A DNA stretch of 64,000 bases from Acidobacteriota bacterium (GCA_020199905.1 JAIVJS010000071.1:8668-72667), one strand, 5' to 3'; shown: positions 11,422-46,100, counted from the first letter of the stretch. Numbers and translations are program-made. The notes: generated from the letters alone by a model not told the origin.

Positions 11422-11425
11422 GTCC

Positions 11426-12181: not shown

Positions 12182-12203
12182 GGCGTGCGGCGTGGCCGGG
12201 GCG

Positions 12204-15235: not shown

Positions 15236-15286
15236 AGGGAAACGGAGCACGTCCTGGAGATCCGCGAGAGTCAGCGCGAGGGTTTC

Positions 15287-18849: not shown

Positions 18850-18960
18850 GAACGCTCAACCCTTCGATTCCCGATCTCGTTGACCGCGGAGTACCGCGGC
18901 CGTCTCCCTCCCGTCGGTCGCTCGGCTCCCGATTCCCGGCTCCGGTCCCGCTTACAGCCC
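18850..18960 (+). repeat. dispersed ~80-bp intergenic repeat, copy B
   Basis: 'gattcccgatctcgttgaccgcggagtaccgcggccgtctccctcccgtcggtcgctcggctccc'. Confidence 0.8.
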
Positions 18961-19404
18961 TCCGCCTTCCGCGCTCAGCGCCTGGCGCCCCAGTCTTTTC
19001 CTCAAGATGAGCCGGTTCCTCCCTCGCCGGCGCTCGTAGTGCTGCTCGTCGGTCAGTTTCTTCACGATCAGGATCCCCAGGCCGCCGATCGGACGGCCCT
19101 CGAGGGGGGCCGACGTATCCGGGTCCGCGCGCCCGAGCACGTCGAAAGCCCGGCCGTCGTCGGTGAACAGCATCTCCAGATATCCGCCCTGGACCGCCGC
19201 GGAGAATTCGACGCGGCGGCCGGCCGGACTCTTCCAGGCGTGCCGGCCGATGTTGGCAAGGATCTCGTCGAGGATCACGAGGACGTCCGAGCGCACGCGC
19301 CGGGGGAGGCCGCGTTCTTTCGCGAATCTCTCGAACCGCTCCGCGGCGCGGGTCCGCCCCGCTTCGGTGGCGGGCAGACGCAGCCGGAGCGGAGGGGCCT
19401 TCAC
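18952..19404 (-). CDS. anti-sigma regulatory factor Ser/Thr kinase (RsbW/SpoIIAB-like, HATPase_c)
   Basis: GHKL motifs ('ILDEILANIGRHA', 'DDGRAFD', 'GGLGILIV'). GTG start at about 19404 overlaps the stop of the upstream HExxH gene. Confidence 0.7.
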   Translation of the reverse strand: MKAPPLRLRLPATEAGRTRAAERFERFAKERGLPRRVRSDVLVILDEILANIGRHAWKSPAGRRVEFSAAVQGGYLEMLFTDDGRAFDVLGRADPDTSAPLEGRPIGGLGILIVKKLTDEQHYERRRGRNRLILRKRLGRQALSAEGGGL

Positions 19405-20561
19405 GAGAGGTCCCGCGGCTGACGCGGGCGCACCAGGCGCTCTCCGAGGTGGCCGCCCGCCGCCGCGAGCTCGTCCAGACGGAGCGACCCGAGAGCGATG
19501 ACGCGGGCGCGCACCGCCCGTTCTCCCCCGGCGGCGGACGGCGGCGGGAGAGCCGCGAGGCTCCGCGCGGCGTCGTGTACGAGTCGCGCGGCGACCGCGA
19601 GACCGTCGTCGGAGAGCGGAGGCGCTCCCCGATAGTTCTGGAGGCGGCCCCCCTCCCGATATTTCGGAAAGCTCTCGAGGCCGAAGAAACGCAGCGCCAG
19701 GTCCACCCTGTACTCGCCGAAAGCTCCGAGCAGCCCGACGTAGTCGGCGATGACCTCGTCCAGCAGGTTGTTGCGCATCGCCCCCGCCAGGCGGAAGGTC
19801 GCGTAGTGCGTCGCTTCGTGCGCCTGGCGGATTCTTCCGGAGAGCTCCAGCCATTCCCGTTCCTCGAAGCCGGCCTCCGAGGCCGGGACGCCGCTGTACG
19901 GACCCACGGAGAGGATGAGGAATCGGTCTTCGTAGATCTCCCGGCGGGCCGCGACGGCCGCGAATTCGCCGGACCAGTCACCGAACACGTTGGCCGCCTG
20001 CCACCTTCTCCGGTACTCGTTTAACCGGTCCCAGTTGTTCAGGCCGGTGACGATGCACGCTCCCATCGACGGCGGCACCGCGATGGGCTCGTTGCGCGCG
20101 GAGAACGCCCGGACGAGCGCCTCGAAGTCCGTTCGTTCGGGCGCGGTGAGGACGGGAACGGGGCCGGTGGGAGTCCGCGCGATCTCCAGGGTCACCCGAT
20201 CGGGCGCCGAGAGCGCGATCCCCGTGGCCTCGGGATCACCTTCGGGCCGGATCCCCCGGCGGGTCGCCTTCCTGTAGGCCTCCGTCGCGCTGATGCCCGG
20301 CCGGACGGGAAAGAGCAGCTGAGAGAAGCGGGCCGCCAGCGCGGGGATGGCGCCGGAGACGCGGGCCTCGTCCGCATACCGGGACCACGCCTCGAGATGC
20401 GGCTCCTCTCCGCCGGCGAACTCGAAGGCCCGCGCGGCCTGTTCCGGAGTGAAGAGCGGCGTGTCGTACGCAAACAGCTCCCGGATGACGTCCGGCGAAG
20501 CGCCGAGGGAAGCCAGGCGCCCGCCGCGAGCGGACGCCTCGGAATCGGCCGGCTCGCTCAA
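19401..20561 (-). CDS. hypothetical protein with zincin-like HExxH motif ('AHEATHYATF...LDEVIAD')
   Basis: 386 aa. Lies between the FHA-cNMP ABC transporter and the RsbW-like kinase on the same strand. No family confidently recognised. Confidence 0.55.
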   Translation of the reverse strand: MSEPADSEASARGGRLASLGASPDVIRELFAYDTPLFTPEQAARAFEFAGGEEPHLEAWSRYADEARVSGAIPALAARFSQLLFPVRPGISATEAYRKATRRGIRPEGDPEATGIALSAPDRVTLEIARTPTGPVPVLTAPERTDFEALVRAFSARNEPIAVPPSMGACIVTGLNNWDRLNEYRRRWQAANVFGDWSGEFAAVAARREIYEDRFLILSVGPYSGVPASEAGFEEREWLELSGRIRQAHEATHYATFRLAGAMRNNLLDEVIADYVGLLGAFGEYRVDLALRFFGLESFPKYREGGRLQNYRGAPPLSDDGLAVAARLVHDAARSLAALPPPSAAGGERAVRARVIALGSLRLDELAAAGGHLGERLVRPRQPRDLS

Positions 20562-20729: not shown

Positions 20730-23700
20730 CTAGACCTGCTGGCGCCGCGCGAGCTCGGCGAAGAGCCCGTTCTTCTTCATCAGCTCGTCGTACGACCCGA
20801 CCTCCGCCACGACGCCGTTCTGCAGGTAGCAGATGCGGTCCGCGTTGGCGATCGTCGACAGTCGGTGCGCGATGCAGATCCGCGTCGAGTTCATCTTGTC
20901 CATGCTCTGCGTGACCGTCGCCTGGGTCTTGTTGTCGAGCGCGCTGGTGGCTTCATCCAGAAACAGGATCTTCGGCTTGTTGACGATGGCGCGCGCGATC
21001 ATCAGCCGCTGCTTCTGCCCGCCGGAGAATCCCCCGCCGCCCTCGCTGACGTAAGTGTGCATCTGCATCGGCATCTCCCGGATGTCCTCGGCGAACCCGG
21101 CCGCCTCCGCCGCTTCCCACGCTTCGTCGATCGTGCGGGAAGAAGTGCCGACGATGTTCCGGTAGATGTCGGAGGGAAGGACGCGATTGTCCTGGAGCAC
21201 GACGCCGAGCTGCTGCCGGACGAGGCGCGTGTCGAGCGCCGCGAGATCCTGCCCGTCGTAGTAGATGCCGCCCTTCTCGGCCGTCTCGAAACCCAGCATC
21301 AATCGCATCAGGGTGGACTTCCCGGAGCCCGAGCCGCCGACGAACGCCACGAACTCGCCCGGCTCGATCTTCAGCGACACGTCCTGGAGGATCCAGGGGC
21401 CGTCTTCGACGTATCGGAACCACACGTGGGAGATCTCTATCTCGCCTTTCAGGGTTCCGGGCGCGGTCTTCGTATCGTCGATCTCGGGGGGCGTCGTCAG
21501 GATCGGCTTCAGGCGCTCCCAGATGGGAACGGCCTTCAGCATGCCGAGCGAAGCGTCCGAGAGCGACTGCATCGCCACGAGGAAGAGAGCGAAAGCGGTC
21601 GAGAATCCGATGAACTGGCCGGTCGAAATGCTCGAAGGAATTCCCTTGGCCGCTGCGCCCGTCTGCACGCTGACCAGCGTGAAGAAGATCGCCATCGAGG
21701 AAAGAATCGGGTACGCGGAGTTGAAGACGGAAACGGTATTCTGGATCTGACCCGCCTTGAATGCCAGGCGCCGCTGATCCGAAAACTCCTTCGCCCAGAC
21801 CCGGAAGCCGTGGTCTTCCGCGCCGGAGACCCGGAGCTTGCCGACGCCCGAGATCAGCTGGAGAACGAGGCCGGTGATCCTTCCCTTCATGGTGAGCTGG
21901 TCGCGCTGGTAACGGAGCTGGAGATAGTTCGCGACGGTCGTGAACGTGACGAACACGATCGTCAACCCGATCCCCAGAAGCGCGAGCGGGAGGCTGTACG
22001 TGAGCATCAGCACCACGTAGAAGATCGACGACATGGCTCCCAGGATCGCGCTGACTCCGGCGCCCGCCAGCAGGTGGCGGATAGCGTCGATTCCCTGCGC
22101 GCGGTCGGCGAGATCTCCGGACGAGTACTTGCGGAAGAACGTGGAAGGCAGGTCGAGAAGCCGATCCCACATCGCCGCCTGCACGGAATAATCCATCTTG
22201 CCCTGAACCCGGAGCACGGCGATGCTCTGCGTCAGTTTGAAGGCGATGGACGCGAGCGCGCCGATCACGAGAGCGATGCAGAACTGCACGAGCATTCCGC
22301 GCTCAGCCTGCGGGATCGCCGTGTCGAAGAGCCTTCCCGTGAAGTACGGCGTCATGGCGGCCAGGATTCCCATTCCGGCCCCCATGAGCGCCAGCGTGAT
22401 GAACTCCCGCCCGAGGCCGCGCACGCCGAACTTCAGGACGTGTTTGACGGTCAGGAGGCCATCGGGGAACCGGCGGTAGAACACCCACCCGAACGGCTGG
22501 AGCTTCGTCGCGAGCTCCGCGGTGATCGGCTCCCGCCGCCCCGTCTTGCCGTCGACCCACTCATACGACGTCGGCCCGGTCGGGAGGAGCGCCACCGGGT
22601 CCTTCGTCTCCTCGCTCCGGGCGAGAATCGGCCCCTGATCCTGCTCCCACCAGTTGTCTCGAAGCGCGACCTGGCGCGTCCGGAAGCGCGAGAGCGTGGC
22701 GACGGCGTGGAGATGGTCTTCGAAACTGCGCTCGGCGGCCGTCTCCGCCGGCTTGCGGGCCTCCATGCCGAGCTCTTCGCAGACCGCGCGGCACGCCTGA
22801 AACACCGGCTCCGCCTCGCCGAACGTCGCCCGCGTCTTGCTCTTTCCCGAGCTGGCGAGGACCGCGCCGATGTCCTTGTAGGCCGCTTCCCGCGCGGCGT
22901 TCAGGTTTTCGGACTTGTTCTTCTGCCGGTTGAACTCGTCGACCGATGCGAGCCTCTTGTTCAGGAACTCGCATTCGCAGAGAGCCTGGTGGAACGCGTC
23001 GAGCCCGCGCCAGAGCTCGGGACGCGCCAGGACGGCGGCGCTCGAACGCGGATTCAACGAGAGGCCCTCGACGGAGGATTCGATCCAGGTGTCCCGCGTC
23101 ACCGGAAAGAGGATGGCGCCGGCGCCCGGCAGGACTTCCGCCATGCTCACGAAGAGAAGCGCGCCGCCGCGGACCTCCACCCAGAGGACGCCCTTCTGAG
23201 CCCGGGCGCGTCCCTGGAAAGGAAGCATCGCCGGCTCTCCGTCCATGAGATCCACCGAGGCCGGTCCGGAAGGCAGGTCGCGGACGAGAGACTTCGAGAG
23301 GCCGGTCACCCACGTCTCGACGAGCGTCGAAATTCGCTCCGCGTGCTTCCCGGACGTCGCGAGTTCCGCGAGCCTCCCGCGCGAGATCATCCGCAGCTTG
23401 GTTCCCGTCTTCCCGGCGGCGAGAAACCCCGAGCCGAGGCCGTAGCCCGCGACGTCCATCCCGAAGAGAGCCTGGCCGGTCTCGACGCTGACGAAGTGCG
23501 TGCGCGCGCCCGCCTCGCCGTCCTTCAGGGGAACCGTGAAGATCTCGAGCCGGCCCTCCTCGACGATCCACATCGCGTTCGGATCGTCCAGGAGAAACGG
23601 CTGGTTGCCGGCGACCGGGATCGGCTCTCCTTCGTCTTCGAGGCGCACGGAGAGCGCCAGCCGTATGCTCTCGAGCATCTCGCGGCGCGGAATCTGCGCG

Positions 23701-24086
23701 GTCTGTACGAGGTCGAGGTCGTCTCCTTCGGGCTCGTCGTCGCGGAAGAACTCGAGCACGGTCCCGCCGACTCGGAAGCGGTCCAGGTGGTCGAGAGGAG
23801 CCTGCTGGACCCGTTGGTCGCCGATCCACGTCCCGTTGGCGCTGCCGAGGTCCGTCAGCAGGTAGCCCGTCGCCGTCTTTTCGACGCGGGCGTGCCGGCG
23901 CGAGACGCTCGGGTCGGGCACGACGGCGTCGCCCTCGACCCTCCCGATGACGCAGCTGTCCGCGGCCGTGAACTCGCGCCCCAGGGTCGCCGCGCCGCCC
24001 TCGACCGCGCGGAGGCGGAATCCGCCTGCCGCCACCGGCCGGAGCCGGATGATCTGAGTGGCTTCGAGATCGGGCTCGGTGCTCAT
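20730..24086 (-). CDS. NHLM-bacteriocin-system-type ABC transporter with N-terminal FHA domain and cNMP-binding-like domain, then TMD and NBD
   Basis: FHA ('SRRHARV...DLGSANGTWIGD'), cNMP-like ('MWIVEEGRLEIFTV'), 6-TM exporter domain, intact NBD (Walker A 'GGSGSGKST', 'FSGGQKQR', '[12 protein letters not shown]'). Confidence 0.9.
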   Translation of the reverse strand: MSTEPDLEATQIIRLRPVAAGGFRLRAVEGGAATLGREFTAADSCVIGRVEGDAVVPDPSVSRRHARVEKTATGYLLTDLGSANGTWIGDQRVQQAPLDHLDRFRVGGTVLEFFRDDEPEGDDLDLVQTAQIPRREMLESIRLALSVRLEDEGEPIPVAGNQPFLLDDPNAMWIVEEGRLEIFTVPLKDGEAGARTHFVSVETGQALFGMDVAGYGLGSGFLAAGKTGTKLRMISRGRLAELATSGKHAERISTLVETWVTGLSKSLVRDLPSGPASVDLMDGEPAMLPFQGRARAQKGVLWVEVRGGALLFVSMAEVLPGAGAILFPVTRDTWIESSVEGLSLNPRSSAAVLARPELWRGLDAFHQALCECEFLNKRLASVDEFNRQKNKSENLNAAREAAYKDIGAVLASSGKSKTRATFGEAEPVFQACRAVCEELGMEARKPAETAAERSFEDHLHAVATLSRFRTRQVALRDNWWEQDQGPILARSEETKDPVALLPTGPTSYEWVDGKTGRREPITAELATKLQPFGWVFYRRFPDGLLTVKHVLKFGVRGLGREFITLALMGAGMGILAAMTPYFTGRLFDTAIPQAERGMLVQFCIALVIGALASIAFKLTQSIAVLRVQGKMDYSVQAAMWDRLLDLPSTFFRKYSSGDLADRAQGIDAIRHLLAGAGVSAILGAMSSIFYVVLMLTYSLPLALLGIGLTIVFVTFTTVANYLQLRYQRDQLTMKGRITGLVLQLISGVGKLRVSGAEDHGFRVWAKEFSDQRRLAFKAGQIQNTVSVFNSAYPILSSMAIFFTLVSVQTGAAAKGIPSSISTGQFIGFSTAFALFLVAMQSLSDASLGMLKAVPIWERLKPILTTPPEIDDTKTAPGTLKGEIEISHVWFRYVEDGPWILQDVSLKIEPGEFVAFVGGSGSGKSTLMRLMLGFETAEKGGIYYDGQDLAALDTRLVRQQLGVVLQDNRVLPSDIYRNIVGTSSRTIDEAWEAAEAAGFAEDIREMPMQMHTYVSEGGGGFSGGQKQRLMIARAIVNKPKILFLDEATSALDNKTQATVTQSMDKMNSTRICIAHRLSTIANADRICYLQNGVVAEVGSYDELMKKNGLFAELARRQQV

Positions 24087-24087
24087 C

Positions 24088-26172
24088 TCAGTGGGCCGCG
24101 ATCAGGTATTTGTAGAAACCCTCGACGTCTTTCATGCCGTCGTGAGTCCCGCGCTGGACGATCTTCCCGCGATCCATGATGACGATCTCGTCCGCGTCCC
24201 GGATCGTGGAGAGCCGGTGGGCGATGATGATGCAGGTGCAGCCGCGCCGCCGGAGGGCGTCGTCGATCGTCGCCTCGGTGCTCGGGTCGAGCGCGCTCGT
24301 CGCCTCGTCCAGCAGGAGAATGGTCGGGCCGAGGGACAAAGCGCGCGCGATTTCCAGGCGCTGGCGCTGCCCTCCCGAGAAGTTACCCCCGCCCTCCTCG
24401 ACCGCCGCCCCGTATCCACCCTCGCGCGCCTCGATCACCTCGTGAATCTCGGCGTCGCGGCACGCGCGGGAGATCGTCGTCGTGGGAATCGTCGAGTCCC
24501 ACATCGAGACGTTCTCGCGGACCGTGCCCGAGAAGGGTCGACTTGCCGCTGCCGCTCATTCCGACGAGGGCGACGCGCTGGCCGGGCTTGATGACGAGGT
24601 TGAAGTTCTCGATGAGCGGCTTTTCGAGCGGGCTGTACCCGAAGGTCACGTTGCGGAGCTCGACGTGGCCGGTGAGCTTCAGGACCGCCCGGTCATCCTT
24701 CTCCTGCTCCTTCTCGCGGGAGTAGAGCGCGTCCTGCGGGTATCGGAGCACGTCGTCCAGCCGATTCATGTCCGCTTCGAGCTCCTGGAGGCTTCCGCCG
24801 AAGGAGACGAAGGAGTTGAGCGGCCGGGTGAAGCTGGCGACGAGAGTCTGATAAGCAACGAGCATCCCGACGGTGAGCTGGCCGTTCATCACCTTCAGCC
24901 CGCCGATCAGGAGCACGAGAGTCGTCGTCAGGGTGTTGACGAGCGGCGGGACGACGCCGACGGCTTCGCCGAGGATGCCGAGTGTCTGATCGGCCTTCAG
25001 CGCCTTCGCCTGGTATCCCGACCAGCGCCCGAAGAACTCCGTCTCACCGCCGGTCGCCTTCAGGGTCTCGATCATCTTCAGGCCGTTCATCGCGGTGCCC
25101 ATGAGCTTCCCGTGGTCTTGGGTGAGCCGGCGGCTCGCGTCGACCCGCTTTCTGGAAACGATTTTCACGGCAACGATGTTCAGGGCCGAGACTCCCATGA
25201 CGACGAGAGTCAGCGTCACGTCATACACGAACATGAGTGCCGCGTAGAACAGGATGAGAACGCAGTCGAGCGCGGTCGTCGCGAGCTTCCCCGAGACGAG
25301 ATGCGCCACCTTGTCGTTGATGAGGACCCGCCCTCCGATCTCGCCCGCGTACCTCTGGGAGAAGTAAGAGACGGGAAGCCGCAGGACGTGGTGAAAGAAC
25401 TGGCTCGACGTCTTCAGCGCGAGTTTCGTCTCCAGGCGCAGCAGGTAGTAGTCCTGGAGCCAGGTCAGGATCATGCGGATGACCGCGGTCGCGGCCATGC
25501 CCATCAGCAGCGACTTCAGGATCCCGGCGCGGTTGGACACCAGGTACTCATCGATGAAGATCCGGGCGAACGTCGGCACGATCAGGCCCGGGATCACGAG
25601 CGCGACGCCGCACAGGAAAACGAAGAGAAGCGCCGCCTCGGAGCCCTGAAGGCGCCGCCGAAGCGCCGCTCCCATGCTCGGCTTCTCTCCGCCCTTCGTG
25701 AACTCGGGTCCCGGCTCGAACGTCAGGACGACGCCGGAAAAGGACGCGTCCACGTCCTCCATGGTGACGACGCGCGGCCCCTGCGCCGGATCCTTCAGGA
25801 AGACCTTGCCCTTGCTTCCGAACCCTTCGAGGACGAGGAAGTGGTTGAAGTTCCAGAACAGGATGACGGGGAACTTCTGGACGTAGAGATCGTCCAGCTC
25901 GTACTTGTAGCCCTTCGCGACGAGCCCGTACTTGCGGGCCGCCTTCATGATGTTGCTCGCCTTGCTCCCGTCGCGCGAGACGCCGCACGCGACCCGCAGC
26001 TCCTCGAGCGGCACGATCTTCCCGTAGTACGCCAGGATCATCGCGAGAGCCGCCGCGCCGCATTCGACCGCCTCCATCTGGAGGATGGTCGGCGTCTTGA
26101 CCCGACGATGCTGAGGCTTCTTCGGGGTGGCGGGCGCTTCGTCGGTCTCGGGCTGCTTCTGAGCTTCCACGT
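24088..26172 (-). pseudogene. C39-peptidase-domain ABC transporter (bacteriocin/lanthipeptide leader-cleaving exporter), NBD disrupted
   Basis: N-terminal C39 domain ('ECGAAALAMILAYYG') and TMD intact. After Walker A ('[10 protein letters not shown]'), about 43 aa including the Q-loop are missing and the frame shifts by +1. The rest of the NBD ('FSGTVRENV...FSGGQRQR...[11 protein letters not shown]...IIIAHRL') is in ORF 24088..24504. Likely GTG start about 26172. Confidence 0.7.
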
Positions 26173-26177
26173 GCCGC

Positions 26178-27329
26178 CTAGCCCCCGCCGAGGGACCTCT
26201 TGACCACGGGCAGGACGTAGGAAATGGGCGTACGGCTCTCGACAACGACCGACGCCGTCGCCAGGGTGCCGCTGTTGACCTGGGTCGGCGGGCCCTTGGA
26301 CGACGACCACCGGTAACCTGAAGGGGTCGACGCGTCGGGGATGAGCGTCGCGACGGCCTCGATCGGGGCGCTCTTCCCCATGAGCGTCTCGACGAGCTTG
26401 TCGTTGCGAAGCACTTTTCTCAGCCCTTCCGGCGTCACCGGAAACTCCGAAACCGACTTCACCTTCCCGACGAGGAATCCGTACTCTTCCGCCTTCACCG
26501 TCGTGGGAGAAATGCGGACCTGCATTCCGGGGCGGACCTTCTTGCCCTCCCCCGCCGGAATGTAGATCACCGTTTCCAGGGGAGCATTCAGAGGCTCGAG
26601 CGTCAGCAGCCGGGTCCCCGGGCTGATCATGTTCCCGCCGGAGCTCGTGACCTCGAGGACTCTCCCGTCATAGGGGCTCCGGATGTCGGTAGACGACGCC
26701 AGCTGCTCTTCGAGTTCTTTGAGCTGGCGCTTCAGATCCTCGACGCGGATCACCTGCCCGGACTGGGAATCCTTGTTCTGCGAGATGAGCGCCTCCGTCG
26801 AGGCCAGCTGCTCCTGAGTCCGCAGCAGCGTCCCGTTGGTCAGGAGGCCCCGGGCGACGAGCCGCTGCTGGACGCCCACTTTTTCCCGCAGCGCCCGCGC
26901 CTGCGCCTGGTACTGGCCGACGATCGAGCTTCCCCGCTGCCCCGACGCGGTCCTCTGCGCTTCGAGCTGGACGAGCCCGGCTTTCGTGTTGGCGATCTTG
27001 AGGGTGAGCTCCGGCTGGGCGATCTTCGCGACCACCTGACCCTTCTTGATCCGGTCGCCGGCCGCCACGAGCACCTGTTCGATGCGCCCCTGCGCCCCGG
27101 AGCTCACGTCATAAACGGCGGCCCCTCGGATCAGCATCCCCTGCCCGTCGACGCGAATGCCGATCGAGCCCACGACGCTCCAGACGACGACGAAAGCGAG
27201 GATGATCCCGGTGCCGACCAGCGCAATCCACCCCGTCGGAGACGTCACGCGCATCATCACGTCGAGCTGCTCGGGAGAGGACAGCTTTTCGAGAGCGCTT
27301 TTCCGAAAAAGCCCTTCGCCTATACCCAT
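26178..27329 (-). CDS. HlyD-family secretion protein (NHLM bacteriocin system membrane-fusion protein)
   Basis: Single N-terminal TM, coiled-coil, beta-barrel MFP architecture. Start 'MGIGEGLF' at about 27329. Confidence 0.85.
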   Translation of the reverse strand: MGIGEGLFRKSALEKLSSPEQLDVMMRVTSPTGWIALVGTGIILAFVVVWSVVGSIGIRVDGQGMLIRGAAVYDVSSGAQGRIEQVLVAAGDRIKKGQVVAKIAQPELTLKIANTKAGLVQLEAQRTASGQRGSSIVGQYQAQARALREKVGVQQRLVARGLLTNGTLLRTQEQLASTEALISQNKDSQSGQVIRVEDLKRQLKELEEQLASSTDIRSPYDGRVLEVTSSGGNMISPGTRLLTLEPLNAPLETVIYIPAGEGKKVRPGMQVRISPTTVKAEEYGFLVGKVKSVSEFPVTPEGLRKVLRNDKLVETLMGKSAPIEAVATLIPDASTPSGYRWSSSKGPPTQVNSGTLATASVVVESRTPISYVLPVVKRSLGGG

Positions 27330-27574
27330 GACTGCTCCCGCTGTGTGCCGACGATGGTAGCCCTTTCCGAGCCGCTCGCGATCGAAATCCTGGGAACCTG
27401 ACCTCGCGATCTCCTGCCGCGCGCGGCGATCCTCCCGCCGCCAGCGGAATGCCCGGTCGGATTCTGAGCGGGAGACTTCGCCAGTCCCGCCGGTCCCCCG
27501 CAAATGGAAGCCAGGCGCTCGCGTTCTCGCTTCGGTCTCACCGCGCTCGCGACGGACATTTCTCGGACAGGCTC

Positions 27575-30500
27575 CTAGCGGGAGCCCGTCAGCTCGTAGA
27601 TCCGCGGGTCCACCTCTCCGAACGTGATGTCGCGATCCGTCCGGCTGTAGGGCAGCAGCGAACCGGTCTCGAAACGCAGACGGGTCACGTCCGAGGCGAA
27701 AGTCTGGCGCGCCGACACCGAGTCGAGGAGCGCGGAAGTGAGATCCCGCTCCGTCAGAATCGCGTCGAGCAGGCTGATTTCCCCGGAGCGATACTGCTCG
27801 AAAGAGTTTCGGATCGTCTCCTCGTAGTACCCCGCGGCGGCCCGCCGCCGTTCCGCCTCCCGGGCGGATTCGCGGGCCGAATTGGCCGCCTGCACGGTGT
27901 TCGCCTGGACGGTCCGCTCGAGATCCCTCGCGGCGATTCCACTCGAGGCGAGAGAGGACTCCGCCTGGAGCAGGAGGCCCCGCTGCACGTTGTTCTTGAA
28001 CGGCAGGGCGAGCCGCAGGTTCACCTGGAAACTCGGGCCCGTGTATTTGCCTCCGAAGGCATTCTTGTATCCCCGGAGGTAGAAGACGCTTCGCGCCGTA
28101 TCGCTCACGTTCCCGGCGGCGTCCCTCGTGAACGCCTCGAACCGGCTCCGGTAGTCCGCCTGCAGCGTGACGCCGAGGCTCGGCCTCAGGTTCACCCGGG
28201 CCGACTGCACGAGCGCGTCCGCGGCGCGCTCCCGCTCGCGCAGCGACTTCACATCCCCGCGCGCGCGCACCGCTCCTTCGACCAGGTCCCTCAGAGACTG
28301 CTCGTCCAGCCGCGCCGCCGACGGCGCTTCCGGCAGCGAGTCCGCGGCGAGCGGCGCATTCCCCATCGCCGTGACGTCGAGCCCGATCGCGCGCGCGAGA
28401 TCGACCCGCGCGTTGGCGAGGGCGCCGCGCGCGCCGGCCACGGCCGCCTCCGCTTCGGCTCGCCGGGCTCGCACGCGATCGAGCTCCGCCCGGGGGATCT
28501 CGTCCCCCTGCACGAGAGCCTCGGAGAGCTGATGGATCCGCCCCTGCGCGCCGGCCGACCGGTCGAGGAGGGTGAACCGCTCCTCTGCGGCGGCGAGCCT
28601 CCAGTACGCCTGCAGGGTGTCGCGCACGCTCTGCGAGGCGATCTGGGCCAGGAAGTCGAGCGACGCCTCATAGTTCAGTTTCGCGGCTCTCAGGGCGGCC
28701 TCCGTCGCGACGTAGCCGAACCCGCGAAGCAGCGGCGCGTCTACGGAGAAACCGAGCACCGCGGTGTAGGAGGTCGGGATGCCGCGGCCGCCGAACGAAG
28801 CGGTGTCGCTCTTGCCTTCGAAGTTGTTCCGGAGGCCCTGGGCGAGAATGATGGGCGACACGATCAGACCGTTGTGAAGCGGGATGTCGTATCGCAGATC
28901 CAGGGTCAGCGTGTCGCGGATGTCGTTGCGAGGCAGAGGCCCGAGCCGCGCGAGAGACTCGTAGGCGCGGCCGGACACCTCTCGAGCGCCGGCGTCGAAC
29001 CGGGTGAGCAGGTCCGCGTAGAAATCGTTGTAGCGCTTCTGGGCGGCCTGAATGTCGGCGCGCTCGGCCGCGTTCGGGTCGTTGGCGGCCAGCGCGGCCA
29101 GCACATCCTCGAAATTGCGGCGCGCCAGCGCTCCCTGCACCACCGACGGCTGGATGTTGGTGCCGCTGACGTCCAGGCAGATCGTCACGCCGTTGACGGT
29201 GAACGTCGAGCCGGAGCACGGCCCGAAATATTTGTAGGAGTTCGCTTTCCCCTGGGCGAGCGAGGTTTCGATGTCGGTCGCGACCTGAGCGAGCACGTCG
29301 CCGAGGGTCTTCAGCGCGTAGCGGCGTTGTACCTCGGGAGTCAGAGGACCTCGCAGCAGGAAACCGATCGCCCGGTCGTAAGAGGGCATGAACACGACCG
29401 CGCTGTCGAAGAACCCGAGCGCCTCCTGGTAGAGGCCGAGGCGGAGGGCGACGTCCTGTCTCGCGAGCTGGATCTGCGGCTGCAGGTCGAGCGTCCGGCG
29501 AACCGCGTCCGCCAGCCGGATCCTCTCGCCGGCCGGTTCCGGCGGAGCGTAGGGGCCGACCGGGGCCGAGGGCGGGGCGAACTGGCCGAAGGCCGCGCCC
29601 GATGCGGGCGGCTCCGCGCGCCGGGCAACGGGCGCCCCGGGCTTTCCGGAGACCCTTCGGCGTCCAGGCCGCGCCTCGGCGGGAACGGAGGCTGTCCTGC
29701 CCCCCGAGGCAACGCCGGGCGCTGTCGGTTTCGGCGGAGGCCCGGCGGCCGGGCTGATCGAGCCGGCGGTCACCGCCGGACGGGGCGTCGTCGCGGGCAC
29801 GAGCGTCGGAGTCACCCGCCGCGTCACGGAGGGGGCCGCTGTCTCGCGGCGCGTCGCGGGCGGCGTCGTGATCCGAGCCGGGGTGGGTCCCGCCGCCTCG
29901 CGGACGAGGGTCCCGCTCTCGAACCGGAGCTGCGCGAGGAGAGTCGCGTACTGCTGGCGCGCCAGCGCGTAAGTGATGAGAGCGCCGGTCTGGAGCTGTT
30001 GCGTCAGGATCGTGTCGATGAGCGAGGACTGGCCGCTCCGGAACATCTCGTTCTCCGACTCGATCGTGCGGCCGTAGTAGTCGACAGCCTCCCGCGCCCT
30101 CTGCACCTGATCGGCCGTCTCCTGGAGAGACCGCAGGAACTGCACGACGTTCGCCTTGATGTTGCGGTCGAGGTCCGTCGCCGTGATCGACCGCTGCTTC
30201 AGGGTCGCGTCCCGCTGCTCGAGACGGCCCCTCGCGGCGTGGTTCCCGAACGGCTTTTCGAAGTCGAGGGCGACGGAGAAGCTCGGCGCGCTCCAGCCGC
30301 GGCCCGTGTTTCCGATCCGCCGCTCCGCGACGGTTCCGGCGGTGATCGGGCTGTGAAGGTCGAGCCGGGGCCGCAGGTCCGTCTCGGCGGCGCGCAGCAG
30401 GACGCCTCCTGACTCGATCAGCTTGCGCGCCGCGAGGCGGTCGTACCGGCGGTCGACGGCGCTCGTGATCAGCTCGTCGGGGCTCGCGCGGCGAAGGACC

Positions 30501-31562
30501 GCGGGGTCTGTCGGTCCCGGGAACGCGTCGGCCGCGAGCGGGGCGTTCGCCTCTTCGAGGACCGAGAGCCCCATGGCGCGGGCGAGGTTGACGCGCGCTT
30601 CGTTGACGGCGCGCGCGGCGTTGAAGACGAGGCTCTGGTCCCCCGCCTGGCTCGCGAGCACACGCGCCCGTTCGGAGCGCGGGATCTCGTCGCCGGAAAT
30701 GAGCGCGTTGGTGACGTCGACGCGCCGGTTCTGGAGCTCGACCGACTTTCTGGCGATGTCCAGCTGCTCCAAACTGCTCGAGGTTCCGCTTGCCCTTGAA
30801 GCGGTCCGACTCGAAGCTCCCCTTGAAGATGAGTCCCGGGGTGATGCCGTTGCGCGCCGGCTGGATCAGCTGGAGATCGATGTTGCCCGCGATGCTCTGG
30901 TTTTCCTTCGGGAGGGGACCGAGATCCGCGAGCTTCTGCCGCTCGCTCGCGAGCTCGATCTCGGATTGATTGAAGACACGCTGGTTGGTCGAGAGCCCGC
31001 GCGCTATCAGGTCCCGTCGGAGGTTCTCGTAGATCGCCCTCACTTCCGGGTCGGTCGTGTTTCGGATCGTCGTATTGAGGATGTCGAACTGGGTCTGCTC
31101 GCCCGTATCCGTCAGGCGGAAGCCGGTCGGATCGAGCGCGAGGCGCTGGTACTCGCCGATCGCCGACTGCGCGGTGTCGCGTGTCTGCGTGATGTCGGCG
31201 ATGCTCTTCTGAATGTCCGTGCGACGTTTCTGCTCCGCGATCACCTGCGACCGGGTCAGGGCCGTCTGGGTGAGCGAAAAGTTCAGGTTCCCGAGGAGAG
31301 TGAGATCGAAACGGCCGGTTTCCGTCTGCGCCACACCCTCCTGCAGCCGCGTCTGCTGCTCGGAGAGCTTGATGTTGGGATCGTGCTGGAGCGTGAGCCG
31401 CACGGCGTCGATCAGGGAAATGCGGTTGTCCGGAAACGTCAGCGCGGGAGGGTCGTAGGGCGCCGCCGGAGCGTCCCGGTGCGTGTCCGCGGCGAGCAGC
31501 GGACCGCACGATACGGCCATCAGGAGAACGATCGGACGCAACCGCGCGGGCAACGCGTTCAT
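27575..31562 (-). CDS. tandem double TolC-like outer-membrane factor (two complete OMF units joined by Pro/Ala/Thr-rich linker); first unit interrupted by a 10-nt insertion/frameshift
   Basis: Frame A (from 31562) has a signal peptide plus the TolC N-half up to '...KGKRNLEQ'. Frame B (30772 downward) carries the TolC C-half, a ~130-aa linker and a second full TolC-like unit without a signal peptide. Deleting 'caaactgctc' at about 30768-30777 joins the frames to '...RNLEQLDIARK...'. Confidence 0.65.
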
Positions 31563-34457
31563 CTGCGGACTCCTTTGTCGGCGGCCGAAGGCGCCGGCGA
31601 AGAATTTCGATGTAAGGACTGAACAAAACGTAGCATCGGCGCGCGAGCGGCGTCAAGGCCGCGACCGCCGCGAGGGGACTCTTCGAAGAGCAGCACGCAC
31701 GGAAGAAAATCGGGCGCCGCGGACCTCAAGAGCGCATAGCCGATTCCCGAGAGCCCGCGGAAGAAGCCGGGGTCGGCCGGGGCGGAATCGTTTCCCTCGT
31801 TTTCGAGGCGGAAGCTTCCGCGGGCGATCGCGGCGTGCAGCAGGGCGGCGATCCGAAGGTCCGCCGCGCGGCGCCAGTCGTCGCGCCCCGCGGCCTGCCC
31901 GGCCGCGAGGAAGATCTCCGCGAGTCCGGCGTTTCCGCAGCAGAGATGGTCCGTCGAGAGAAGGCCGGTCGCCAGGGCGGCGGACATCGCGCGCTCGAGC
32001 TCGCCCGAGAGGGACGGGTCCGGAGACCGGGCGAGCATTCCCGCGCGAGCGAGAGCGATTCCCGGAGCGCCGTGACACCACGCCTTCATGAAGACCGGCG
32101 GACGGCTCGGAACGGGCGAAAGCACGGGCCAGTTGCCCTGCGCCGCGTCGTACAGGCTTTCCTCGTAAAGACGCGCCTCTGCGGCGGCGGCGGCGAACCG
32201 TTCTCGGCCCCCCGCCTCGGAGAGCCGCGCGAGCGCCAGAGAGATGCCCGCCGCTCCGTGCGCCAGACCGGCCAGGCACGTCCCGCCCGGCGACTCCCAA
32301 CCCCATCCGCCGCCGGTGATCCGCTTCGCCCCCGCGAGCAGAGAGTCGCCGCACACCGTTGCGGCTTCGAGCGCCGCCGGATCGCCCGTCAGCCCGTAGA
32401 GCGCCAGCAGTCCGAGCGCGGCGCCCGCCGCGCCGCCCTCGACGTCCGGTATCGCGGTGCCGCCGATCCGCGCGCCGGTGATGCGCGCGGCCGCGCGGCG
32501 CGCGAGCCGCAGGAAGTCGGGGTCGCCCGAGATCGAGGCGATGGCCGCGAGACCGTATACGAGCGAGCCCGTTCCGTCGCCGGCCCCGATCGACTCTCCG
32601 GGCGCCGGTGCCGCGTCTTCCCCGTCCGCGTCCAGGGCGTGCGCGATCGGCCGGCAGACCTCGCGCGCCGCCTCCAAAAACGAGGAGTCCTTCGCGACGG
32701 ACGCCAGGGCCGCGAAGAAGACCGCGATGCCGGCGGCCCCCGAATAGAGGCCCGTCCCGCCGGCCGCCGGCCGCGCGGCCAGAGTCCTCCTCACGTCCTC
32801 CCCGATCCCGCGCGCGAGCCGCAGGAGCTCCGAGGGAGAGAAGCCCGGGTCGCCGGGCGGCCGGCCGGATCGGGATGAGGGCGGAGCGAGCCTCGGACGG
32901 AGCCACGCGACCTGACCCGCCAGGCCTTCTTCCGACATCGCGGCCAGCCGTCGCCTCGCGGCCTCCAGCCCCGACCGCACGATGCGTCCCTCGATCGGAT
33001 CGCCTCCCGCCACGGGAATTTCGCGAGCGTCCACCGGGACGCGGAAGTACGGGACGTCGAGCCTCTCCAGCGCGGAGCGCTCTTCCTGCGTGAGACGCCA
33101 CAGCGCCGGCGGTCGATCGTCTTCGCGGAAGACACGGTTCAGAGAATCGATCGCGAAGCTGCGCGAGACGCCATCGCGAAGGTGCCCCGGCGCGGCGAGC
33201 TCAAGGAGGAGGCGGGCGTAGGTCTCACTCGCGCGAAGCACCAGGCGCGTCGAGATGCCGGCGAAGGCATCGAGCGGACCGCCGGGCGAGCCAATCCCGC
33301 GGCGATGTTCGATCAGGGCGCGATAGGCGTCGGAGAACCCGCGCTCGAGTTCCTCCGGGAAATCGTCCGGCAGGAGAGCGTGCCCGTCAAAAATCGGAAG
33401 ATTCATCGGGCTGGCCGGGGAGGTCGCAGCGGTCGTCTCCATCGCGTCCGTGCCGGGACGGGGGAAGGTCGGCCTCACCGCCGCCGCGCCGCCCCGCAGA
33501 CCGGACAGCTCCGAGACGTCCCCCGACCGCTCGACCCGCGGCGACGTGAGAAGGCCCGAGCGAAGCGCCGACTCGCGCCACTCCCGCGCGAACCGGCCGA
33601 TCGCGCCCGATCGTCCCTCGTCCGCCGCCGCGAACTCCGGCTGCAGCGCCGACTCGGCATCGACGATCGCGGGGCCATCGGCCGACCCGATCACGTTCTC
33701 GACATGGAGGTCGTCCAGACCCATGAGCCAGGCGGCGCAGAGGAGAGCGCCCGACCGGCGGACATAGGCGCGGGCGCCGCCCTCCTCCGCGAGAGCCCCG
33801 CGCTCGATGAGCTCGAAGTATCCATAGTCGTCCCGGGAAAGGGCCACGACGGGCCGCAGCCCCAGGGAGGGGACGCGCCCGCCGAGCCAGGAGAGGAACC
33901 CGTCCCACGCCGCTTCCGCCCGCGGGTCCCGGGGCTTGTAGACGACCGCCGCGCCATTTTCGAATCGGAGAACGCTGACCGTGCGGCCTCCCCGGTGACG
34001 GTCGGAAATCGACGGAACGATCCCGATGACGGGCCCCTCCGCTCGGAAGCGCTCCGCCAGCGCCCTCCGATCGGCGGAGAGGCGCGCCGCGAGTTCGTTC
34101 GTCGTGTCGACCCAGCTCTCCGACAGGATGGCGAGCTGCCGGGCGAGGACCCGGAAAGGCGACGCCGGCATCGACATCGACCGGGAGCGCGGTGTCCCCG
34201 CGCGCGGCCCGGGAAAGGTAGGACGCGAAGACCGCCGTCCACGGAGGCAGCGCGCCGCCCGGGAAGGTGACGGGAACGGCCAGCGCCGCGTTGACCCGCG
34301 CCTCGTCGAGACCGTCCCACGCGAGCCGACGGGCGAACGCGTCCTCCCGCCCTCCCGCCACCATGCGAGCCCACCCCGCGAGTCGCGGGTCGGTTTCCGG
34401 ACCGGGGACCGGTTCGCGGATGCCTCGGGCGAGATCGAGTCTCTCGTCCAGGCTCAT
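31559..34457 (-). CDS. lanM: class II lanthipeptide synthetase LanM (dehydratase DUF4135 + LanC-like cyclase); apparent frameshift near the 5' end
   Basis: LanC-like C-terminus ('WCHGAPGIALA', 'CCGNAGLAEIFL', 'GxxHGxxG'). DUF4135 region ('RTVSVLRFENGAAVVYKPRD'). The first ~90 aa with a LanM-like N-terminus ('RLAWDGLDEARVNAAL') lie in ORF 33387..34457 in another frame; the switch is around 34165-34200. The 5' end overlaps the TolC start (ATGA). Confidence 0.8.
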
Positions 34458-34514
34458 CGCGCGAGCGGCGATCTCCGCGACCCGGTCGAAGGTCAGAGCG
34501 CCTCCACGAAGGAA

Positions 34515-34549
34515 GCGAGGCCACCTTCCATGCCGGAAGGTGGCCTCGT
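34515..34549 (-). terminator. strong 14-bp GC-rich hairpin between precursor gene and lanM (candidate attenuator / processing site)
   Basis: 'cgaggccaccttcc atgcc ggaaggtggcctcg', a perfect 13-14-bp inverted repeat, 25 nt downstream of the precursor stop and 60 nt upstream of the lanM start. Confidence 0.5.
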
Positions 34550-34571
34550 CGCAATCCCGAGATGCGGAGAG

Positions 34572-34892
34572 TTAGACGAGCTTGATTTCGACGTGGGTGT
34601 TGATCCCGCCCTGCGCCTTGTTGCAGTTGTGGTCCAGGAAGCCCCCGGCCACCATCTCGAGCGCGCTGTCGGAGAGCTCCGCGCCGGCCTTCGGCACGAA
34701 GGGGACGACCACGTAGAGCGTGTCGGCCGTTTCCTCGACCGCCTTGACCTTCATGCCCGAGGGGAGGGTCGTGTTCAACTGCTTCTCCATCGTGCCCTTC
34801 GGATCCTTCATGAGCGCCTCGCGATACTTGGGGTCGTTCGCCGCGAACTTTCCGAGAAGATCCTGAATCTCTCCGCGACTGATGTCGGCCAT
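34572..34892 (-). CDS. lanA: NHLP (nitrile-hydratase-leader-peptide) family lanthipeptide precursor
   Basis: Leader 'MADISRGEIQDLLGKFAANDPKYREALMKDPKGTMEKQL...VKAVEETADTLYVVVP...ELSDSALEMVAGG' matches the NHLP leader consensus and ends in a GG cleavage motif. Predicted core 'FLDHNCNKAQGGINTHVEIKLV'. Confidence 0.85.
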   Translation of the reverse strand: MADISRGEIQDLLGKFAANDPKYREALMKDPKGTMEKQLNTTLPSGMKVKAVEETADTLYVVVPFVPKAGAELSDSALEMVAGGFLDHNCNKAQGGINTHVEIKLV

Positions 34893-34950
34893 GGGAACCT
34901 CCTTCGATGTTCAGCCGGAAGTGGCTGAGCTCTTTGTTTGCCCGGAGAGA

Positions 34951-34968
34951 TTGCACGCCGGGTGCCAC
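34951..34968 (-). promoter_or_regulatory. sigma-54 (-24/-12) promoter upstream of the precursor gene
   Basis: Minus-strand 'gTGGCACccggcgTGCAat': GG-N10-GC spacing with good -24 (TGGCAC) and -12 (TGCA) matches, about 60 nt upstream of the ATG at 34892. A sigma-54 activator gene lies immediately upstream. Confidence 0.6.
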
Positions 34969-35086
34969 GGCTCTTTTCCAGTAAACGAAAGAAAACAGAT
35001 GGCTTAGACATGAGACGTTGAAATGGCGTGGAGGTGCGGCTCCATTTGAAGGAGCCACCGCTCCAGAGGAGCGTCCGAGAAGCAGG

Positions 35087-36154
35087 TCAGGGCTTCAGGT
35101 CGTGGTGCCGGAGAAAATCCATCAGCTTCTGATAGTCGGCCGAAGGCAGCCGGAACACGTGGAGTAGCTGCCTGTAGCTCCCTCCGGCGTCGAACAGCCC
35201 CTGCCGGATGAGCGCCTTCACCTGAGAACGATTCAACGTGCGGTCCAGAAACGGCGAGTGCACGAGCTCCCAGAAGCCCCCGCCGTTGGAAGTCATCCGC
35301 CGGTAGAGGTCGTGCGACGGGTCTTCGCTTCCCGGGGGGCCCTCCGAGAGATGGGCCATGAAGTGCTGCGGCTCTATCAGATCGCTGTCCGCCAGCGCGT
35401 ATCCCGTCGTGGTGACGCTGATGAGCTCGCGAACGTTGCCCGGCCATTCGTAGTCCTCGAGCATCTTGAGAGACGCCTGGGAAAAACGCCGGGAGGCTCC
35501 GTACTGCGCGCGCAGCCTCTGCAGGGTGTGCTCGAGGAGATAGAACCAGTCGTTCTCCCGCTCTCTCAACGCGGGAACGCGGATCAGGAAGTAGCAGAGG
35601 CGGTGGTAGAGATCGTGTCGAAATCCGGCGCTCGCGATCAGCTGGGTCAGGGGCCGGTTCGTGGCGGCGACGATCCGCACGTTCACCGATTGAGTGATCT
35701 CGGAGCCGAGCGGCTGGAACTCCCCGTTGGCCAGCGAGCGCAGGAGCATCACCTGCGCGCTCATGTGGAGGTCTCCGATCTCATCTAAAAAGATCACTCC
35801 CCTGTCCGCCGTCTCGAAGCATCCGCGGCGATCCGAGGAAGCGCCCGTGAAGCTGCCCTTCTTGTGTCCGAAGAGCTCGCTGACGGTCAGGTTGCCTTCG
35901 ACGTACTGCGGACAATTGACCGAGACGAAGGGCTTTCCCCGCCGCGGGCCCATCAGGTAGACCGCCTGCGCCAGCGCCTCCTTGCCCGAACCGCTCTCGC
36001 CGGTGATGAGGACGGGCTCGTTGAACGACGCGACCTTTTCGATCGTCTTCTGTATGTCCAGAAACTTCGCCGCCGCGCCGACCATCTCGACGGCTCGCCG
36101 GTATCCCCATTCGGTGATCGAGGCTTTGCGCACGCGCAGCGCAAAATCGCTCAT
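35087..36154 (-). CDS. sigma-54-dependent transcriptional activator lacking an N-terminal sensor/receiver domain (PspF-like architecture)
   Basis: AAA+ sigma-54 activator motifs ('VLITGESGSGKE', 'GSFTGA' which is GAFTGA-like, 'FLDEIGDL', 'VRIVAATN') and a C-terminal HTH. The protein starts about 20 aa before Walker A ('MSDFALRVRK'). Confidence 0.85.
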   Translation of the reverse strand: MSDFALRVRKASITEWGYRRAVEMVGAAAKFLDIQKTIEKVASFNEPVLITGESGSGKEALAQAVYLMGPRRGKPFVSVNCPQYVEGNLTVSELFGHKKGSFTGASSDRRGCFETADRGVIFLDEIGDLHMSAQVMLLRSLANGEFQPLGSEITQSVNVRIVAATNRPLTQLIASAGFRHDLYHRLCYFLIRVPALRERENDWFYLLEHTLQRLRAQYGASRRFSQASLKMLEDYEWPGNVRELISVTTTGYALADSDLIEPQHFMAHLSEGPPGSEDPSHDLYRRMTSNGGGFWELVHSPFLDRTLNRSQVKALIRQGLFDAGGSYRQLLHVFRLPSADYQKLMDFLRHHDLKP

Positions 36155-36254
36155 CGCCTCCGGCGAGTAAGAGCTCAAGAGACCCCTCCCTGGGACGGCG
36201 GGACGAGCGGTGCCGCCGTCCCGCGATCTGCCTCGGTCCTCGTGCTTGTGTGAG

Positions 36255-37279: not shown

Positions 37280-37686
37280 AAAAGGGCTACTGGATTGCCG
37301 CCGTCCTCGCCGCGGGGTTCATTCTTCTGGGAGTCACGGCCTTTCAAAAAACGCTCACGCCGTACCTCTCCTTCGACGAGGCCCGCCGCGCGCGAGGCAC
37401 CGTGCAGGTGATGGGCAGCCTCGACAAGCAGAGCGACCGGTACGACACCGGCCGGCAGGAGCTCTCGTTCGACATACTGGACGGGTCCGGCCACCGGATG
37501 CCCGTCGTCTATCGAGGGATCAAGCCGGGGAACTTCAAGGACGCAATCTCGGTCGTCGCCATCGGCCGCTATCAGAAGGGCCGCATCGACGCGGAGCGTC
37601 TTCTGGTCAAGTGCCCTTCCAAGTACCAGGGCGCGGAAGTCGAGAAGGCCTATGGGGCGTCTCCGAAGGCGGTGGGTCGGACCTGA
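37276..37686 (+). CDS. ccmE: cytochrome c maturation heme chaperone CcmE, CxxxY variant
   Basis: N-terminal TM plus OB-fold. The heme-binding motif is 'VKCPSKY' (CxxxY) in place of the canonical HxxxY. Confidence 0.8.
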   Translation: MKKGYWIAAVLAAGFILLGVTAFQKTLTPYLSFDEARRARGTVQVMGSLDKQSDRYDTGRQELSFDILDGSGHRMPVVYRGIKPGNFKDAISVVAIGRYQKGRIDAERLLVKCPSKYQGAEVEKAYGASPKAVGRT

Positions 37687-46099: not shown

Positions 46100-46100
46100 G

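Follow-up and report, generated by a model that had tools for sequence, protein, structure and literature searches.

This study concerns a biosynthetic and export locus within a 64,000-nucleotide stretch of DNA (hereafter, the window) from an Acidobacteriota bacterium (GCA_020199905.1, JAIVJS010000071.1:8668-72667), which has a G+C content of 64-73% and whose nearest relatives are Acidobacteriota metagenome-assembled genomes (MAGs) of the class Thermoanaerobaculia. A myxobacterial origin, which the G+C content had suggested, is contradicted by these relatives. Read along the minus strand, the locus comprises a sigma-54 activator, a -24/-12 promoter, a precursor gene with a nitrile hydratase leader peptide (NHLP), a hairpin, a LanM-type synthetase, two TolC-like outer membrane factors (OEP1 and OEP2), an HlyD-type adaptor, an ABC exporter with a C39 peptidase domain (ABC1), a second ABC protein with an FHA domain (ABC2), a DUF7005 protein, and a kinase. 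This gene list and its order had been proposed in a first-pass annotation of the window, and family profile matches far above chance now bear them out. The region as a whole quite likely represents one copy of a cassette, conserved in Acidobacteriota (Thermoanaerobaculia), whose genes produce a small class II lanthipeptide and export it. Coordinates below are those of the window, and features lie on the minus strand unless marked (+).

Conservation of the cassette

A scan with the HlyD protein yielded 48 loci, and the related stretches that were compared carry L numbers here. The sibling reference is contig JBHEMI010000081.1 (loci L002 and L051), which matches the window at 99.4-99.9% identity across a span of more than 30 kb. 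L001 (GCA_020200255.1) is another public assembly of the same species. The order enhancer-binding protein (EBP)-NHLP(x1-3)-LanM-OEP1-OEP2-HlyD-ABC1-ABC2-DUF7005-kinase recurs in L003, L004, L006, L007, L009, L013, L014, and L018, which derive from Thermoanaerobaculia and other Acidobacteriota, and LanM identity across the loci with this order ranges from 100% down to 33%. Variant gene orders are found in L015-17 as well as in Verrucomicrobiota and Rhodanobacteraceae. The Verrucomicrobiota arrangement is rearranged to exporter-EBP-(DUF7005)-NHLP-LanM-like, and in the Rhodanobacteraceae both the EBP and exporter genes were found, with neither NHLP nor LanM detected in the fetched stretches.

State of the cassette copy in the window

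The locus had initially been described as complete. However, when aligned to the sibling, its LanM, OEP1, OEP2, and ABC1 genes are interrupted by deletions of 131-335 nt. At 34150/34151, 275 nt are absent, which removes amino acids (aa) 103-194 of LanM and shifts the frame of its first 102 aa; what is left is an N-terminal fragment (34151-34457, aa 1-102 of 1057, located by tblastn with the sibling LanM) and, in a different frame, the remainder of the protein (31559-34150, aa 195-1057). At 30770/30771, the absence of 209 nt costs OEP1 aa 269-334 and leaves an N-terminal fragment with the signal peptide (30771-31562, ~aa 1-268, tblastn 99% identity to the sibling OEP1) and a C-terminal fragment (29898-30770, ~aa 335-632) that is in frame with the OEP2 remnant. 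A third deletion of 335 nt at 29897/29898 removes the end and stop codon of OEP1 together with the start of OEP2, its signal peptide, and its first 87 aa, such that OEP2 persists as aa 88-862 (27575-29897; tblastn and PF02321 OEP) with neither start codon nor signal peptide. Lastly, 131 nt are absent at 24535/24536, where ABC1 loses aa 547-589 between its Walker A and signature motifs and is divided into aa 1-546 (24536-26170: peptidase, transmembrane domain, and Walker A) and a C-terminal fragment in another frame (24088-24535, aa 590-737). At all four of these sites, relatives L003-L006 and L014 side with the sibling.

Similar deletions are encountered outside of the cassette, as 213 nt are missing at 11471/11472 (the COX2/COX1 junction, with loss of COX2 aa 237-321 and the COX1 start) and 245 nt at 13602/13603 (from the CcmA C-terminus to the CcmB start). 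Furthermore, window 10666-11474 is only 96% identical to the sibling versus 99.8% elsewhere, which suggests a strain-chimeric MAG consensus. L001 exhibits five gaps of its own, 31-335 nt in length, relative to window positions 25675-25834, 33914-34150, 37539-37569, 38864-39198, and 44348-44526, including a 335-nt gap in ccmF. Since the deposited gene calls agree with the L001 DNA, these gaps reside in the record itself. One L001 gap boundary coincides with the window LanM junction at 34150/34151.

Because the gaps are scattered, assembly-specific, and also present in housekeeping genes, the window deletions are most likely assembly artefacts. Judging from these comparisons, the organism probably has an intact cassette, while the sequence as given encodes none. 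Conversely, the deletions could be real and the window copy a decaying, non-functional remnant with its LanM, both OEPs, and the processing ABC inactivated. Consistent with such decay, four clean deletions fall within 9.6 kb of cassette, each 2 modulo 3 in length (275, 209, 335, and 131 nt), secondary-metabolite loci are often lost, and the distribution of the deletions itself speaks against an artefact, as the cassette contains four of the six and comparison with the sibling revealed none over the 10.7 kb upstream of it. Among the alternatives weighed here, this is the one to be taken most seriously, but we consider it unlikely: comparable deletions interrupt the cox and ccm genes of the window, L001 carries a different gap set in the same species that extends to ccmF, the sequence outside of the junctions is 99.4-99.9% identical to the intact sibling and free of point nonsense mutations, and the 96% stretch is as expected from a strain-chimeric MAG consensus. 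The window copy is unfit for expression as given, with four genes truncated, and JBHEMI010000081.1 holds the intact versions.

Frameshifts were also suspected at overlapping same-strand open reading frames (ORFs) in 7780-11475, 11426-13133, 44927-47297, and 60127-62020. Pfam coverage attributes most of these overlaps to extension of the upstream ORF in GC-rich DNA; among the suspects, the cox junction at 11471/11472 proved to be a deletion.

Precursor peptide, LanM, and predicted product

The precursor gene (34572-34892) encodes 106 aa and scores 61.6 bits against TIGR03793 (cut-off 50.9), with residues 8-84 aligned to profile positions 4-77 of 77. Its leader ends in ...LEMVAGG, and thus the previous assignment to the NHLP family, with a leader terminating in AGG, is upheld. 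The leader is followed by a 22-residue core, FLDHNCNKAQGGINTHVEIKLV, with a single Cys and a single Thr. Two public MAGs, JBHEMI010000081.1 among them, encode exactly this precursor protein, and related loci encode one to three near-identical precursors directly upstream of LanM. Core length and sequence vary among the loci, normally with a single Cys and a strand-like tail after the motif segment. The motif C-x4-G-G-x-x-T is kept in all Acidobacteriota-type cores and in one Verrucomicrobiota core, except for one that reads C-x4-G-x-G-T; further cores that carry the motif are ...TYTCNTSTGGFNTRNEFQSTVKLV and ...VTCNDAKGGFMTYIQIEASLVG. Together with the single Cys, the motif persists across LanM identities of 33-100%, and among the 150 best representatives of NHLP-family clusters formed at 50% identity, 9 share it.

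The window LanM, previously proposed as a class II enzyme, scores accordingly for both halves of such a synthetase, with 570 bits for TIGR03897 (cut-off 304), 280 bits for the dehydratase domain (PF13575, DUF4135), and 168 bits for the LanC-like cyclase (PF05147, LANC_like). Due to the frameshift and the missing aa 103-194, no single ORF in the window encodes the full-length protein, which is intact in the sibling (1057 aa, TIGR03897 592 bits). The cyclase motifs read GLAHGAAG, WCHGAPG, and LCCGNAG, the acid/base His is kept, and the zinc motif is of the ProcM-type CCG variety. This CCG motif is well known and typical of ProcM-like LanMs with a three-Cys zinc site (PMC8524650).

From these features, the ProcM-like LanM would be expected to dehydrate the single conserved Thr and to add to it the Cys located nine residues upstream. 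The simplest product would therefore be a peptide with one methyllanthionine ring joining core Cys6 to the dehydrated Thr15. The cores of NHLP and Nif11 peptides are hypervariable (PMC2887384), and because the core of the present cassette is conserved in contrast to these, a specific conserved target is suggested.

The peptide might nevertheless fall short of a strict lanthipeptide, with LanM only dehydrating the Thr or having its chief substrates elsewhere in the genome, and with the Cys serving in a disulfide dimer or in metal binding. ProcM-type enzymes are known to process many unlinked precursors, the core offers just one Cys and one Thr, Cys is missing from the cores of Verrucomicrobiota relatives, and many LanM-associated NHLP cores lack Cys as well (Haft et al., PMC2887384). 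We find this scenario improbable, as the Cys and Thr are the two invariant modifiable residues and retain a fixed spacing in very divergent cores, the cyclase domain is conserved along with its zinc ligands, and the single NHLP gene found in the 64-kb window is situated directly upstream of LanM.

The Cys-free NHLP cores of Verrucomicrobiota occur in L022, L025, L032, L034, and L035 (for example, FLSAENNTFLGPDSSL), and no hairpin follows the precursor in these loci. Their LanM-like gene matches over the dehydratase part only, and the loci end short of its C-terminus.

Sigma-54 promoter and hairpin

The activator gene at 35087-36178 (alternative ATG at 36154) encodes a sigma-54 EBP with matches to PF00158 (190.9 bits) and AAA_lid_14 (60.9 bits). 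It consists of the AAA+ core and lid, with a GSFTGA loop in the translation, and lacks a receiver or sensor domain at its N-terminus; in the sibling, the gene is called at 363 aa. Homologues of this EBP also flank the cassette in the Verrucomicrobiota and Rhodanobacteraceae loci. The sigma-54 type -24/-12 promoter, TGGCACccggcGTGCA (TGGCAC-N5-GTGCA, 34952-34967), is located 75 nt upstream of the precursor ATG, and a TGGCAC/T-N5-xTGC element is found 54-98 nt 5' of the first precursor gene in 17 of the related loci with upstream sequence. Hence, the GG and GC at -24 and -12, their spacing, their conservation, and a nearby EBP with a GAFTGA-type loop are all present, and the earlier proposal of a sigma-54 activator and promoter stands. 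Approximately 60-115 nt upstream of the -24 element, there is a palindrome-like pair, TGGAGCggtgGCTCC and TGGAGCcgcaccTCCA (TGGAGC...(G)CTCCA, 35029-35065), which surpasses the rest of the EBP-precursor spacer in conservation among the window, L003, L006, and L007 and is a plausible upstream activator site for the EBP. The receiver-less activator would presumably bind this pair and thereby drive the -24/-12 promoter ahead of the precursor gene.

Downstream of the precursor stop codon, a GC-rich stem-loop of 13-14 bp (34516-34548, -30.4 kcal/mol) may serve either as an attenuator or to stabilise the transcript. A stem of -25 to -40 kcal/mol is located 3' of the last precursor gene in all Acidobacteriota-type relatives, the stem sequences being unrelated and often followed by a T-rich tail. 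A strong hairpin at this position could keep the transcript level of the precursor high relative to that of the enzyme. Generic terminator and sigma-70 promoter scans performed at chance level, and an Rfam search of 13000-37500 returned zero RNA families.

DUF7005, the kinase, and the regulatory neighborhood

The coordinates originally given for the locus (20730-36154) exclude two of the genes named in its description, the HExxH protein (19401-20561) and the kinase (18952-19404). The former is a 386-aa DUF7005 protein (PF22541 398.5 bits) with an HExxH (HEATH)...E...D arrangement, in which H248, E249, H252, E269, and D273 are invariant in 121 sequences. Its AF2 model has a pLDDT of 95 and weak similarity to PDB structures, and the protein is a candidate zincin-like metalloprotein. 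The latter is a 150-aa RsbW/SpoIIAB-like Ser/Thr kinase of the HATPase_c_2 type (PF13581 71.6 bits), and its start overlaps the DUF7005 stop. Dozens of Acidobacteriota proteins of ~510-540 aa (e.g. L054 10001-11593) combine DUF7005 and an HATPase_c_2 kinase in one polypeptide; these fusions are a Rosetta-stone link between genes that are separate, yet overlapping, in the window.

The conserved regulatory module reaches even further, to approximately position 14354. Beyond the kinase are a 370-aa protein with a C-terminal FHA domain (17694-18806 (+), FHA 63.1 bits), which the sibling and the Vicinamibacterales locus L056 also encode; a 573-aa FHA-GAF-PP2C (SpoIIE-type) phosphatase (15774-17495; SpoIIE (PF07228) 177.6, GAF_2 74, and FHA 58.8 bits), found beside the cassette in L051, L054, and L056; a STAS anti-sigma-antagonist-like protein with a phosphorylatable VSSAG (15254-15757 (+), TIGR00377 72.5 versus 53.45 bits); and a canonical cNMP-binding and FHA protein (14354-15235 (+)) with a CRP-like match and an FGE...PRGATV cassette. 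The latter two are conserved in L054 and L056. The cNMP-FHA protein has an additional weak, below-cut-off match to TIGR03896, "bacteriocin-type transport-associated" (46.6 bits). The components of a partner-switching system, namely an HATPase_c_2 kinase, a STAS protein with a phosphorylatable Ser, and a PP2C phosphatase, are thus assembled here, and the kinase/STAS/FHA-GAF-PP2C/cNMP-FHA set adjoins the exporter in L051, in the distant Thermoanaerobaculia locus L054, and in L056, where ABC2 contains two FHA domains. The first-pass annotation had considered the scaffold to be known and the added regulatory layer to be the interesting part, a view that has held; the layer is both conserved and larger than first seen.

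Given this composition, peptide export or production is probably gated post-translationally by the RsbW-like kinase, the STAS protein, the FHA-GAF-PP2C phosphatase, the cNMP-FHA protein, and the FHA and cyclic-nucleotide-binding (CNB)-like domains of ABC2, and the gate could operate via phosphothreonine-FHA contacts. An alternative explanation would be that the kinase, STAS, PP2C, FHA, and cNMP genes form an independent stress-signalling module that is a mere neighbor of the exporter. Modules of the partner-switching kind are widespread and mostly act on sigma factors or other outputs, some members of the set are encoded on the opposite strand, and a DUF7005 locus of Nostoc has no kinase, STAS, or PP2C genes. 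On the other hand, the set accompanies the exporter in both Thermoanaerobaculia and Vicinamibacterales despite a rearranged orientation, DUF7005 is fused to the kinase in many proteins and located beside NHLP/LanM genes in cyanobacteria and Verrucomicrobiota, and an FHA domain is built into ABC2 itself, twice in L056. A module independent of the exporter is therefore rather doubtful.

In the Nostocaceae loci L052/L053 (10001-18952), DUF7005 adjoins a cNMP-binding protein, a Nif11 peptide, a radical SAM enzyme, two NHLP peptides with Cys-free cores, and a LanM. The association of DUF7005 with NHLP/LanM genes spans three phyla.

Export machinery

The HlyD-type NHLM periplasmic adaptor (26178-27329) is intact at 383 aa, scores 332 bits against TIGR03794 (versus 156.2), and is 100% identical to the sibling protein. 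ABC2 (20730-24086) is likewise intact, with 1118 aa in both the window and the sibling, and matches the NHLM permease/ATPase profile TIGR03797 (910.2 versus 709.4). Both agree with the proposed two-ABC and HlyD set of the NHLM transporter families. ABC1 does not do so in its present form: its first piece scores 750.2 bits against TIGR03796 (profile 1-521; PF03412 117 bits) and its second 232.8 bits (profile 575-709), each below the cut-off of 853.3, and profile positions 522-574 are absent, such that no single protein in the window spans the profile. The intact sibling ABC1 (737 aa) reaches 1093.5 bits against the same cut-off. The catalytic Cys motif of the C39 domain, VECGAAAL, is present in the window ABC1. 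The sibling OEP1 has 648 aa, and the sibling OEP2, which starts with MKRFLAGAVLALVGAALAVA and has its own signal peptide, has 862 aa.

ABC2 had been described as an FHA plus cNMP ABC protein, of which the FHA part is secure. The FHA domain (aa 46-107, E=2e-14) retains the canonical GR...SxxH...NG residues, and its PDB matches include the FHA domains of Rv1747 (6cah and 6ccd). The cNMP part fares differently. At E<=1, Pfam cNMP_binding (PF00027) had no match in the window ABC2 or in 24 relatives, and the position of the phosphate-binding Arg reads G-F-L-A. An hhalign comparison of the domain with E. coli CRP placed it in the expected register with E=0.11, and a structure model, built from a 3-sequence alignment and of modest confidence, exhibits a CRP/CNB-like barrel at ~aa 150-270. 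When ABC2 aa 1-430 served as a query for homologues, generic FHA proteins dominated the matches and the middle domain was covered by two truncated relatives only, and a search with the middle domain alone gave no matches. As modelled, the "cNMP" domain of ABC2 is a likeness at the level of fold, with no family membership.

The "fused TolC-TolC" factor is a product of the 335-nt deletion. Every relative examined (>20), the sibling included, has two separate OEP genes that each encode a signal peptide. A complete single operon with a natural TolC-TolC tandem fusion and a true cNMP domain in ABC2 is consequently very improbable, for although the window does contain a 1065-aa ORF (27575-30772) that has OEP repeats at either end and the middle domain of ABC2 is CNB-like in fold, the ORF is an in-frame join made by the 335-nt deletion and its N-terminal part is cut off from the OEP1 start by the frameshifting 209-nt deletion, LanM and ABC1 are split, and both the cNMP_binding profile (0/25 family members) and the Arg position contradict a true cNMP site.

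Among side observations on the exporter, two other window genes contain matches, at 40127-40345 (+) and 49390-49548 (+), that are 38-45% identical to the first 72 residues of the intact OEP2, which comprise the signal peptide and a short domain; one of the two genes encodes a 310-aa protein without a Pfam match. The Acidobacteriota locus L031 contains two tandem HlyD paralogues and encodes its FHA domain apart from ABC2, upstream of ABC1 (8905-11140, 11212-11481).

Discussion

Several aspects of the cassette have clear precedents. The association of NHLP precursors, LanM, and a three-gene transporter was published in 2010, for example from Nostoc sp. PCC 7120 (Haft, Basu & Mitchell, PMC2887384). 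The present cassette shares with that system its TIGR03793 precursor, the TIGR03794/03796/03797 trio, an adjacent LanM, the Gly-Gly site, and a short core. It differs in that its core is conserved with one Cys and one Thr, whereas the cores of the published system are hypervariable, and in that it adds two TolC-like genes, a sigma-54 activator and promoter, DUF7005, and a partner-switching/FHA module in an Acidobacteriota host. The prochlorosin system (ProcM; CCG LanMs, PMC8524650) offers parallels in its CCG three-Cys zinc site, its long protein-like leader, and its Gram-negative host. There, however, one enzyme serves dozens of hypervariable, mostly unlinked substrates with a Nif11 leader (ProcA), while here one to three near-identical precursors with an NHLP leader and a conserved, predicted single-ring core are encoded directly upstream.

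The export genes are reminiscent of both HlyB/HlyD/TolC type I systems and the exporters of double-glycine bacteriocins, which similarly combine an ABC protein, a membrane-fusion adaptor, and an outer-membrane factor, with a C39 domain that cuts the GG leader. In the present case, the cassette itself encodes a pair of distinct ABC proteins as well as two dissimilar OEPs of unusual length (648 and 862 aa). In the proposed pathway, the C39 domain of ABC1 would cut the leader after Gly-Gly, and ABC1 and ABC2, presumably as a heterodimer, would act together with the HlyD adaptor and the two TolC-like factors to move the peptide across both membranes.

For the regulatory layer, the closest comparisons come from unrelated pathways. 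In Mycobacterium tuberculosis, Rv1747 is an ABC exporter with N-terminal FHA domains that is controlled by Ser/Thr phosphorylation. ABC2 resembles it in having its FHA domain or domains on the cytoplasmic N-terminus of an ABC exporter, an analogy that would imply phosphothreonine-dependent control of transport. Its ABC family and cargo are unrelated to those of Rv1747, however, the candidate kinase is a GHKL enzyme of the RsbW type and not a Hanks-type kinase, and a CNB-like domain is inserted between the FHA domain and the transporter. The RsbW/RsbV/RsbU and SpoIIAB/SpoIIAA/SpoIIE modules also feature an HATPase_c_2 kinase, a STAS protein with a conserved Ser, and a SpoIIE-family PP2C. Distinct from those modules, the present set has no cognate sigma factor nearby, its kinase is fused or translationally coupled to DUF7005, FHA domains are found on the phosphatase and its partners, and it is syntenic with an exporter.

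Several points weigh against the proposed lanthipeptide cassette and its regulation, in addition to the clustering of the deletions noted above. Firstly, a Cys located N-terminal to its Thr represents the less common ring direction, and a core that offers just a single residue of each kind might yield a product that is dehydrated but not cyclised, or not modified at all. Secondly, the hairpin in the window has a weak T tract and no proper U tract, and the generic terminator scan does not call it. Thirdly, with a conserved strong hairpin after the precursor and gaps of 245 nt before HlyD and 168 nt before DUF7005, the single transcription unit of the first-pass annotation is at most a putative one. 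Lastly, none of the listed neighborhoods encodes a sigma factor and no other target of the kinase and STAS pair was identified there; it is by synteny and gene fusions that the regulatory genes appear to be tied to the exporter.

NHLP/LanM clusters are commonly regarded as encoding hypervariable peptides that are exported in a simple manner. Here, one short core motif is kept in distantly related Acidobacteriota as well as in at least one locus from Verrucomicrobiota, and the combination of a fixed core, dedicated OEPs, and sigma-54/kinase wiring suggests that the peptide has a specific, conserved target and that its release is under tight control. DUF7005 also gains a genomic context, through its presence in NHLP/LanM clusters of three phyla and its fusion to an RsbW-like kinase. 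Our literature searches retrieved nothing relevant on DUF7005, on lanthipeptides together with either partner switching or sigma-54, or on lanthipeptides of Thermoanaerobaculia. Within the literature searched, the conserved one-Cys/one-Thr core, the two built-in OEPs, and the sigma-54 plus kinase/STAS/PP2C/FHA/DUF7005 layer all appear to be undescribed.

It is conceivable, although we regard it as a tentative and on balance unlikely proposal, that the cassette serves for signalling and is not an antibiotic cluster. The conserved single-ring peptide would then be a signal whose secretion is gated by a phospho-relay, made up of the RsbW-type kinase coupled to DUF7005, the STAS protein, the FHA-GAF-PP2C phosphatase, and the cNMP-FHA protein and acting upon the FHA/CNB-like N-terminus of ABC2, with sigma-54 as the transcriptional arm. 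If true, this would constitute both a new form of post-translational control over the export of a peptide that is made by ribosomes and modified after translation (a RiPP) and a peptide-signal system of the Acidobacteriota.

Elsewhere in the window, 44927-47962 encodes two tandem MacB-type permeases (FtsX and MacB_PCD) and an ABC ATPase. These genes are upstream of the ccm genes and are apparently unrelated to the cassette.

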